From the sequence record OR352938.1: a stretch of 64,000 nucleotides of DNA, one strand, 5' to 3'. Source of the DNA: Escherichia phage AV108. Positions within the stretch are counted from its first letter, which is position 1; the number at the start of each line of letters is the position of its first letter. This document shows, piece after piece, positions 35,953 through 37,008 of this stretch. Position numbers and translations under genes: made by a program. The notes below the pieces were generated by a model. That model was not told the DNA's origin. It made no database searches and was given only the letters and a program-made list of their open reading frames with translations.

Positions 35953-36546
35953 TTAAACGTATTCAGCAACAACATTATGTTTAAAATTACCGCTCATTTT
36001 TGGATTTGGATTTTTCAATCGACTATGTATTAAATTTTTGTTGTATCCGGTTGCTTTAGACGCTTCGCCAATACTTTGATAAACAACACCATTAACACGA
36101 ATCGGACGAGACTTATTAAACAGTTTATTCAATCCGGCATCATATGCATGGTTTTGGTTTTCTTGCCTCGTTGCGATCTCAAGATTCCAAACACAATTAC
36201 AAGATTTTAACCCACTTTTATGATTAATTTCAAGACCTTCACAATCACCTATAAAGTGTTCAGCAACTAGTCTATGAATATAGCTATATTTCTTACTTTC
36301 CCCATCATACAAGCATACATTATAATAACCATCACCAGCGCGTTTAGGTCGGAGTAGTTTACCTTTAACACGTTTTATAGTAGGGAACTCACCAAATTGA
36401 TTTCTCTGGATAAACGGAATCTCGCGGTCTAATGAACGGATTCGACCATAGTTAGACACTTGATAAAAACTTTCATATCCTTTAATTGGCTTCCATATCT
36501 CAGGGATTTCTACACCATCAATAACAACAAGTTTAAATTCTTCCAT
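35953..36546 (-). CDS. Free-standing HNH homing endonuclease (NUMOD4 + HNH)
   Basis: YQVSNYGRIRSL (NUMOD4) and INHKSG...N..NLE (HNH) motifs. Confidence 0.7.
   Translation of the reverse strand: MEEFKLVVIDGVEIPEIWKPIKGYESFYQVSNYGRIRSLDREIPFIQRNQFGEFPTIKRVKGKLLRPKRAGDGYYNVCLYDGESKKYSYIHRLVAEHFIGDCEGLEINHKSGLKSCNCVWNLEIATRQENQNHAYDAGLNKLFNKSRPIRVNGVVYQSIGEASKATGYNKNLIHSRLKNPNPKMSGNFKHNVVAEYV
35953..36546 (-). mobile_element. Homing-endonuclease gene insertion next to grcA-like gene
   Basis: Free-standing HNH ORF with own RBS in accessory region. Confidence 0.4.
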
Positions 36547-36594
36547 ATTTCACCTCATAAAAATAAAGCCAACCCTTTCGGATTGGCTTGTCGA

Positions 36595-37008
36595 TTACAT
36601 AGATTCCGTAAAGGTACGGGTGATAATATCAAGTTGTTGTTCGCGTGTCAAGGCGTTGAAGCGGGTAGCATAACCACTGATTCGAATTGTAAGCTGCGGG
36701 TACTTCTCAGGATGTTCAACCGCATCAAGAAGAGTCTCCCGACGCAGTACATTCGCGTTGAGATGATGACCCGCGTTACTATTTACCCCGTTATCAATTG
36801 CTAAAGGACGGAAGCTAGTTGTGTGCAGTGCCAGCGAATCGACGTCTTCTGCGGTGATCACATGGTCTTCTGCGAAAGTTTTACTAACAATTACTTTAGC
36901 GCCGATCAGGGCTTTCGGTTCGGATACCAGAATCATAGGCGCGAAATGTCCACCGATAATAGTACCTTTATGCTCACCTTTCATGATTTGAATTGCTTTA
37001 AATTCCAT
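36595..37008 (-). CDS. Autonomous glycyl radical cofactor (GrcA/YfiD-like)
   Basis: 137 aa; [56 protein letters not shown] near-identical in pattern to E. coli YfiD C-terminus. Confidence 0.85.

Follow-up and report, generated by a model that had tools for sequence, protein, structure and literature searches.

Escherichia phage AV108 (sequence record OR352938.1), of which we analyzed a stretch of 64,000 nucleotides (the window), carries grcA, the gene of a small glycyl-radical protein, and next to it, head to tail and also on the minus strand, a free-standing homing endonuclease gene (HEG). As judged from genome alignments, what is mobile at this place is a cassette composed of a recoded radical domain (∼210 bp at the 3′ end of grcA), the grcA terminator, and the HEG. 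The best explanation, which we regard as probable, is intronless homing directed against the glycyl-radical codons of grcA, with a recoded, immune version of the module being coconverted along with the HEG. By itself, the grcA gene is of an already known kind and offers nothing new; the new points are the linkage of the recoded radical module with the HEG and the tie of the HEG's clade to grcA in unrelated phages. An earlier note on this DNA, made from the sequence alone, had suggested that grcA and the endonuclease gene travel as a mobile unit. Both open reading frames (ORFs) that it named are real (Table 1), and the peptide that it quoted is the C terminus of the 137-residue GrcA product. 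The idea of a mobile unit is right in spirit and wrong in extent: the 3′ module (∼codons 69 to 137), the terminator, and the HEG are coinherited, but the gene as a whole is not, its 5′ half being native.

A recoded radical module linked to an endonuclease gene

A segment of 3.5 kb around grcA and the HEG matched 58 phage records at 90 to 99% identity, all of them Krischvirus, and these matches place the AV108 stretch in that genus, within the RB49/JSE/GEC-3S group of T-even phages. The HEG is present at ≥94% amino acid identity in 8 of the 58 records (LF73P4, MIZ4, MIZ5, pEJ01, FL20, JK32, FL04, and G37-3), and the best phage match outside these eight is below 47%. HEG-free genomes lack a segment of 598 bp, which in GEC-3S is replaced by 17 bp, so that the comparison of related phages proposed in the earlier note finds the HEG to be variable. 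The recoded tract follows the same distribution, since it occurs at ≥92% nucleotide identity in the same eight HEG-carrying records only, all other records reaching at most 75%.

The divergence from HEG-free genomes has sharp limits. Against GEC-3S, there are 28 and 37 mismatches per 100 bp at positions 36600 to 36800 and 0 to 3 per 100 bp elsewhere. The 5′ half of grcA diverges from that of HEG-free relatives by 0 to 2.5% of its nucleotides, with no difference from FL38 and MIZ6, and codons 1 to 66 show a synonymous divergence (dS) of 0.12 and a nonsynonymous divergence (dN) of 0 from GEC-3S; for codons 67 to 138, the values against HEG-free alleles are 2.4 for dS, which is saturated, and 0.25 for dN. 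On the left, the cassette ends at the start of nrdC.11. Within grcA, the border at ∼codon 68 coincides with the boundary between the part that corresponds to E. coli YfiD's disordered N-terminal half and the radical domain, which is structured (PMC8683613). The recoded module replaces residues at which 118 relatives show no variation, DVI becoming DII and the usual radical motif RVSGYAV becoming RISGYAT, in which the Gly and Tyr residues are retained. Among the HEG-carrying alleles, substitution ratios indicate that the tract is under purifying selection (AV108 versus JK32: dS of 0.33, dN of 0.022, and dN/dS of ∼0.07), which suggests that a GrcA bearing RISGYAT still works.

A search of 5.8 billion proteins found no donor of the recoded module closer than ∼85% over part of its length, and an exact 20-mer of the tract had no match in IMG/VR. 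A separate search of IMG/VR for GrcA loci returned a single Krischvirus locus and was not used for counts. We also considered whether the HEG-free allele might be a recent capture from the host; this was ruled out by its nucleotide identity to E. coli grcA of 76.8%, as compared to 98% for the T4 allele.

The cassette has been found on several genetic backgrounds. The recoded tract is identical in AV108, MIZ4, LF73P4, FL20, and pEJ01, and the HEGs of these phages show at most 5 differences, whereas their right flanks (36811 to 37690) differ at 11 to 22 positions per 880 bp. The right flank of AV108 has only 2 or 3 differences from those of the HEG-free phages MIZ6 and FL38, as against 20 to 22 from those of FL20 and pEJ01. 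One cassette thus sits on several flank haplotypes that also occur in HEG-free phages, and such a uniform cassette on varied flanks is the pattern expected from recent homing, or at least from recent transfer by recombination.

The AV108-type module is not the only one of its kind in the genus. JSE, 011D4, and Whisky contain, in the same spacer, a different NUMOD4-HNH gene whose product is 28% identical to the AV108 enzyme, and the HEG of phiS is 74% identical to that of JSE; the JSE-type phages and phiS each have their own version of the radical module. Metagenomic Krischvirus-like contigs (L015 to L020) combine an HEG 61% identical to that of AV108 with a fourth radical module (RVSGYAVFVNSLTHEQKMDVIS), which in L015 has FV in place of RF at residues invariant in the 118 relatives, and G37-3 and FL04 contain a further mosaic block in the radical module. 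Besides the AV108 type, Krischvirus therefore possesses four other HEG-linked module alleles (JSE, phiS, L015, and the G37-3/FL04 mosaic). The modules have 62 to 75% DNA identity to each other, and the first ∼59 residues of GrcA are identical in every genome. Every nonstandard grcA allele in the genus adjoins an HEG, and the six HEG-free genomes that we fetched and compared all encode one identical GrcA protein.

The HEGs are inserted at various points of the 86-bp intergenic region: before the native terminator in L015, after it in AV108 and JSE, and further on in phiS. In L015, the native terminator is kept downstream of the HEG, and the HEG brings its own. The spacer of HEG-free genomes (ATGATGATATGATG...) was considered as the remnant of a deleted HEG, a possibility that was ruled out because in phiS this spacer is present as well, followed by the HEG.

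Of note, the last 185 nucleotides of T4 vs.6 (L021, 2176 to 2360, running from IEGGQHLN up to the stop codon) share 98% identity with grcA of E. coli Nissle (L022), and the similarity between the T4 and E. coli genes stops abruptly at both ends of this block. From these alignments, the T4 radical module looks like the product of a recent exchange with the host gene, involving the same module as that swapped in Krischvirus.

Homology identifies AV108 GrcA as a PFL-type autonomous glycyl-radical cofactor, orthologous to T4 Vs.6 (Y06I), and the alignments to E. coli GrcA and to the T4 protein bear out what the earlier note had read from the letters. Residues 78 to 118 correspond to Pfam Gly_radical (PF01228; 58.7 bits versus a cutoff of 22.2; E value, 9.8e-16) and residues 37 to 137 match the structure of E. 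coli GrcA (6owr; E value, 1.4e-28). The C terminus of PFL (1h16, residues 700 to 759) is matched with an E value of 5e-24, the identity to the last 60 residues of PflB being ∼75%, and T4 Vs.6 is 53% identical over 98% of the length. The NCBIfam equivalog TIGR04365 (spare_glycyl) matches residues 37 to 137 and stays below its cutoff (114.5 versus 170 bits) because the N-terminal half is genus specific. AV108 has the gene order vs.8, small ORF, and vs.6, with regB, vs.1, and vs further down, in common with T4 and JSE, and the ortholog in JSE is annotated as vs.6. Homologs of grcA were found in 1,580 phage records, and in all Krischvirus genomes the gene occupies the same position, with or without an HEG.

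According to PMC8683613, which cites Wagner et al. 2001, there are two "spare part" proteins with experimental validation, T4 Vs.6 and E. coli YfiD: the radical is installed in them by the PFL activase, after which they restore PFL that has been cleaved by O2. By homology, AV108 GrcA would likewise be activated by the host PFL activase and would replace the oxygen-cleaved C terminus of host PFL. The earlier note had instead paired grcA with nrdD and nrdG. Both genes do lie in the window, nrdD being full length (17140 to 19002, minus strand; Pfam NRDD, 7e-175) and coding for a Gly_radical domain of its own, and nrdG being assigned to TIGR02491 (15234 to 15743, minus strand; 4e-49), but the radical domain of GrcA is of the PFL type, and its characterized T4 and E. 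coli counterparts receive their radical from the host PFL activase, not from NrdG. A BLASTP comparison of GrcA with the phage NrdD gave chance matches of 5 to 9 residues only (best E value, 0.095 over 9 residues), with no significant similarity beyond RxSGY, so that the link to nrdD and nrdG is without sequence support. The same comparison, together with the completeness of nrdD, shows that grcA is not a 3′ fragment of a split nrdD, the alternative that the note itself had raised.

By its domains, the HEG is a newly found free-standing HNH homing endonuclease of a known class, in agreement with the first description of the gene. Its NUMOD4 (66.6 bits) and HNH_3 (36.2 bits) domains both exceed the Pfam cutoffs, it matches phrog_59 (E value, 2.8e-40), and its nearest solved structure is that of I-HmuI (1U3E; E value, 5e-13), with which the HNH residues INH109...N121LE...EN130 are in register. 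The ORF is intact in all eight genomes, with dN/dS values of 0.16 to 0.26 among three sublineages. The terminator hairpin that separates it from grcA is also found in HEG-free genomes and is annotated in GEC-3S and G37-3. The recoded codons of the AV108, JK32, and G37-3 alleles also contain a candidate promoter, which neither the HEG-free alleles nor that of JSE possess; it is separated from the HEG by the grcA terminator.

An endonuclease clade at grcA in unrelated phages

The nearest relatives of the AV108 HEG in a large protein collection form with it a clade of 13 members, supported by 77 of 100 bootstrap replicates of a neighbor-joining tree, in which the Krischvirus and the intron subclades each have a support of 94. 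A first tree included an I-HmuI sequence, which served for rooting only, and the bootstrap tree was made without I-HmuI. Nine members had a readable context, and all of these are located at a grcA gene: five are contained in a group I intron, one splits the gene, and three are free-standing downstream of it (AV108, L015, and L043). Three more distant relatives have no grcA neighbor.

The five intron-borne members are encoded on metagenome contigs (L034, 2371 to 3132; L035, 2372 to 3130; L036, 2372 to 3154; L042, 2157 to 2939; and L044, 388 to 1136), which stem from unrelated phages, probably of Gram-positive hosts. In these loci, the called Gly_radical ORF ends directly after RVSG, and its remainder (YAV.F..LTKEQQ...) is found ∼100 nucleotides past the HEG. 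When the two parts are joined in silico behind base 1 of the Tyr codon, a complete, short GrcA of 78 residues results, so that the insertion site lies between the first and second bases of that codon (RVSG/YAV, the slash marking the site). The intervening segment of 749 to 783 nucleotides resembles a group I intron in several respects: its 5′ splice site is marked by a U.G pair within a P1 helix, in which exon and guide show a compensatory change; a long-range P3 pairing reaches over the ORF and likewise has compensatory changes; there are R-like (GUAGAGACUA, overlapping the stop codon of the HEG) and S-like (AAGACAUAGUCC) elements; and there is a terminal G. Double compensatory changes were observed in 15 of 48 predicted pairs. 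The Rfam model Intron_gpI found no match at an E value of ≤0.01 in the whole intron loci, nor at ≤10 in L036 2360 to 3170, presumably because of the ∼540-nucleotide ORF inside the intron. Our assignment rests instead on the in silico splicing and the covariation, which make it very likely that the segment is a group I intron. The intron form is restricted to these five related loci, the grcA gene of AV108 being unbroken across the radical site.

The gene-splitting member (L037, 2198 to 3123) interrupts grcA at this same position but brings no intron, and the gene lacks its SGYA codons. The N-terminal piece ends with ...QLTVRI* and the C-terminal piece starts with MPRFNALT, so that this grcA is either disrupted or a gene "in pieces." In L043, the grcA gene is complete, with the motif RVSGFAV, and its end is overlapped by a free-standing HEG. 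Directly upstream of this pair, a gene for an NrdG-like radical-SAM activase was observed (1338 to 1784), and L035 contains, beside its intron-containing grcA, a full-length ROOL RNA (4550 to 5148; 258 bits; E value, 3e-58) and several tRNA genes. A search of the literature library that was accessible to us found no report of a homing endonuclease or a group I intron at grcA.

T5-like phages were considered as a further case of association and rejected as too loose, the relative of the JSE-type HEG being located ∼1.1 kb downstream of the grcA homolog. The phage in question is Salmonella phage smaug (L023), where the grcA homolog (919 to 1287) and an HEG ∼42% identical to the JSE type (2405 to 2911) may represent a second HEG lineage accompanying grcA, or a coincidence.

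Proposed homing at the radical codons and its alternatives

In AV108, the equivalent of the intron insertion site falls between positions 36672 and 36671, ∼125 bp from the start codon of the HEG. Intron-encoded endonucleases cut near their insertion site and free-standing ones at a distance (PMC2988022). The sequence A[T/C]GCAGT, right after the site, is common to every HEG-free allele (Krischvirus, T4, and E. coli) and to every intron allele once spliced, and it is altered in every allele that adjoins a free-standing HEG (Table 1).

We propose that, in a mixed infection, the HEG enzyme would nick or cut grcA of an HEG-free relative at or next to the radical codons (GGT T/AC GCA GTG) and that recombinational repair off the carrier genome would copy the recoded module, the terminator, and the HEG. 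The diverged module would not be cut by the enzyme, so that the carrier would be protected, and it would still encode a working, if unusual, GrcA. From the alignments described above, we infer where the enzyme would cut, that the recoded allele is immune, and that the AV108 copy of the HEG is active at present. A broader reading, to which we give neither more nor less credence than to its negation, is that one I-HmuI-like HNH clade has specialized on the DNA of the radical-glycine loop of phage grcA (RVSG/YAV) and is found in all three states of the proposed mobile-intron life cycle: free-standing beside a recoded target (AV108), inserted in the target and destroying it, and inside a group I intron capable of self-splicing. 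In Krischvirus, this clade and a second HEG of the same locus, unrelated to it, would by their activity have made the most conserved part of GrcA a multiallelic, swappable cassette.

Several observations weigh against homing at the radical codons. The presumed target site is derived from HEG relatives that are just 47 to 51% identical. A 38-nucleotide patch of the AV108-type allele (codons 98 to 110), just upstream of the radical codons, is identical to the HEG-free allele, which implies that not the whole tract is needed for immunity, and the JSE allele is more lightly recoded, with a stretch of 20 residues in which the protein is unchanged and only some wobble positions are altered. The AV108 copy of the HEG differs from those of MIZ4, FL20, and others by four private amino acid changes (Y80, S88, L113, and M184) and by no synonymous change, which could reflect relaxed constraint or the start of decay, or alternatively adaptation. 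With two substitutions in the seven-residue motif RVSGYAV, the AV108 allele may not provide full GrcA function. Finally, since the HEG and the tract are physically adjacent, their cooccurrence alone could result from one founding event followed by suppressed recombination in a tract that is 28% diverged.

The main rival explanation is that the enzyme recognizes the grcA-nrdC.11 spacer in its empty state, a site that is disrupted once the HEG has inserted itself there, and that the diverged tract is a hitchhiker with no role in immunity. The HEG does sit in the intergenic region, tight linkage would hold a hitchhiking tract in place, and the 38-nucleotide patch would then signify that some back-conversion is tolerated. 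However, HEGs, related or not, lie at no fewer than three places in the 86-bp spacer or reach into the end of the gene, and these differing positions leave no common "empty site," which argues against an intergenic target. Members of the clade in unrelated phages have wholly different downstream neighbors and always grcA upstream. Moreover, five of the relatives are intron ORFs at the Gly/Tyr codons, the kind of enzyme that cuts near its insertion site, and the bases right after that site are altered in every free-standing case. Weakened by the varied insertion points and the intron relatives, an intergenic target with a hitchhiking tract appears unlikely to us.

We consider it quite unlikely that the HEG is an inactive relic and that the module diversity stems from ordinary recombination of phages with each other and with hosts, possibly under diversifying selection exerted, for example, by host PFL or activase variants. 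T4-like genomes are indeed highly mosaic, the host-like block at the end of T4 vs.6 implies that the radical module can be exchanged without an HEG nearby, and the private changes of the AV108 HEG would suit a gene in decay. Ordinary recombination, though, does not predict that nonstandard alleles always lie beside an HEG while the six HEG-free genomes compared share one protein, and a relic sits poorly with an HEG that is intact in all carriers, has low dN/dS values, and retains its catalytic residues. A cassette much more uniform than its flanks also indicates recent spread. Least credible, and in our view very improbable, is the movement of the complete grcA and HNH genes as one unit with GrcA serving as a spare domain for the phage NrdD (with NrdG) and PflB: the adjacency of the two genes, the presence of nrdD and nrdG in the same 64 kb, and the joint occurrence of short grcA genes and HEGs in some unrelated phages would fit it, but grcA keeps its place in Krischvirus regardless of the HEG, its 5′ half is undiverged, its radical domain resembles PflB and not NrdD, and only the repair of PFL, with the PFL activase, has been demonstrated for the family (PMC8683613).

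Apart from the cassette, two features of the neighborhood were noted. A 41-codon ORF (37019 to 37144, minus strand) between vs.8 and grcA is kept in all relatives and belongs to a family of its own (phrog_13848; E value, 6e-31). A second variable HEG site (∼37690 to 37735) lies between the vs.8-like ORF (37144 to 37629) and the gene of an M15 endolysin (37692 to 38081); it is occupied by a 576-bp HNH-AP2 gene in JK32, JSE, and FL04, by a split one in pEJ01, and by a NUMOD4-HNH gene for a 175-residue protein in L015 and L016, and it is empty in AV108 (a 621-bp indel relative to JK32).

Table 1. Features of the grcA-HEG region of AV108 (window coordinates) and sequences following the presumed target site in five HEG-linked alleles
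Feature	Position	Strand	Remarks
grcA (T4 vs.6/Y06I ortholog)	36595..37008	-	137 amino acids; continuous ORF, without intron
Native 5′ half of grcA	36807..37008	-	Codons 1 to ∼67
Recoded, HEG-linked glycyl-radical module	36595..36806	-	Codons ∼68-137
Inferred homing-site equivalent	36650..36690	-	Codons R-I-S-G-Y-A-T-R-F; by analogy with the intron insertion site
Radical Gly112 codon	36673-36675	-	Read from the sequence
Sigma-70-like promoter match	36623..36651	-	TTGACA, 17 nt, TG-TATTAT; 11/12; arises from recoded codons
Intrinsic terminator hairpin of grcA, then T-run	36566..36589	-	Between grcA and HEG
Shine-Dalgarno sequence GAGGTG	36551..36556	-	4 nt upstream of the HEG ATG; read from the sequence
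HEG, free-standing, I-HmuI-like NUMOD4-HNH	35953..36546	-	197 amino acids; intact
Segment missing from HEG-free Krischvirus genomes	35957..36554		598 bp, with 17 bp in its place (versus GEC-3S)
nrdC.11-like nucleotidyltransferase (RlaP)	35236..35934	-	Left flank of the cassette; no HEG-linked divergence
Post-site sequence, AV108 allele			ATGCTACC
Post-site sequence, L015 allele			ATGCTGTT
Post-site sequence, JSE allele			ATGCCGTA
Post-site sequence, phiS allele			ATGCGGTC
Post-site sequence, L043 allele			TTGCAGTC

Significance and comparison with known systems

The class of mechanism that we propose is well known, and it is the completeness and testability of the system that are unusual. It offers a natural setting in which to study how a selfish endonuclease reshapes the most conserved and catalytically essential part of a protein, with at least five radical-loop alleles that carry changes at otherwise invariant residues and are all under purifying selection. 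It likewise bears on the way in which group I introns and endonuclease genes become associated, since one clade is present in three forms at one target codon. The system can be tested directly because HEG-carrying and HEG-free isolates share collections: MIZ4 and MIZ5 can be paired with MIZ2, MIZ3, and MIZ6, FL04 and FL20 with FL15, FL37, and FL38, and G37-3 with G2494. A block that is exchanged between coinfecting relatives also calls for caution in annotation and in the composition of phage therapy cocktails that contain Krischvirus.

As a protein, AV108 GrcA resembles T4 Vs.6 and E. coli YfiD in being small and stand-alone, with ∼60 C-terminal residues homologous to residues 700 to 759 of PflB, and its gene has the same neighborhood as that of T4 Vs.6. 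It differs from both in its genus-specific N-terminal half, its RISGYAT motif, and its foreign, HEG-linked module.

With respect to mobility, the closest parallel is provided by SegF, SegG, and MobE, free-standing endonucleases of T4 for which intronless homing is described in the review PMC2988022 (citing Belle 2002, Liu 2003, and Wilson & Edgell 2009). Like them, the AV108 HEG is free-standing between conserved genes and patchily distributed among close relatives, its presumed cut site lies in a neighboring conserved gene at a distance of tens to hundreds of base pairs, and a diverged flank with sharp tract borders is inherited with it. In contrast, the AV108 enzyme is, by its sequence, of the I-HmuI-like NUMOD4-HNH type and not of the GIY-YIG or Mob type, its tract corresponds to a whole protein domain, and at least five HEG-linked alleles exist in one genus. 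We found no earlier report in the literature of grcA as the target gene of a free-standing homing endonuclease.

I-HmuI and I-HmuII, intron-encoded HNH nicking endonucleases of the Bacillus phages SPO1 and SP82, reportedly read the sequence of the downstream exon and exclude the flanking markers of a competing phage, a finding attributed to Goodrich-Blair and Shub in 1996. Such marker exclusion is the behavior that we propose for the AV108 HEG, which is free-standing with grcA as its presumed target, whereas the Bacillus phage enzymes are intron encoded and act on a DNA polymerase gene.

Free-standing HEGs that target an intron insertion site have been described for cyanophage psbA (Zeng et al. 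2009) and for mobE and I-TevIII in nrdB (PMC2790892). As in these cases, free-standing and intron-associated forms converge here on the same conserved site of one gene, a situation that bears on the origin of mobile group I introns. Unlike in the psbA and mobE systems, a single HEG clade is intron borne (L034 to L036, L042, and L044), gene splitting (L037), and free-standing (AV108, L015, and L043), and its intron forms reside in unrelated phage contigs and not in the same genus.

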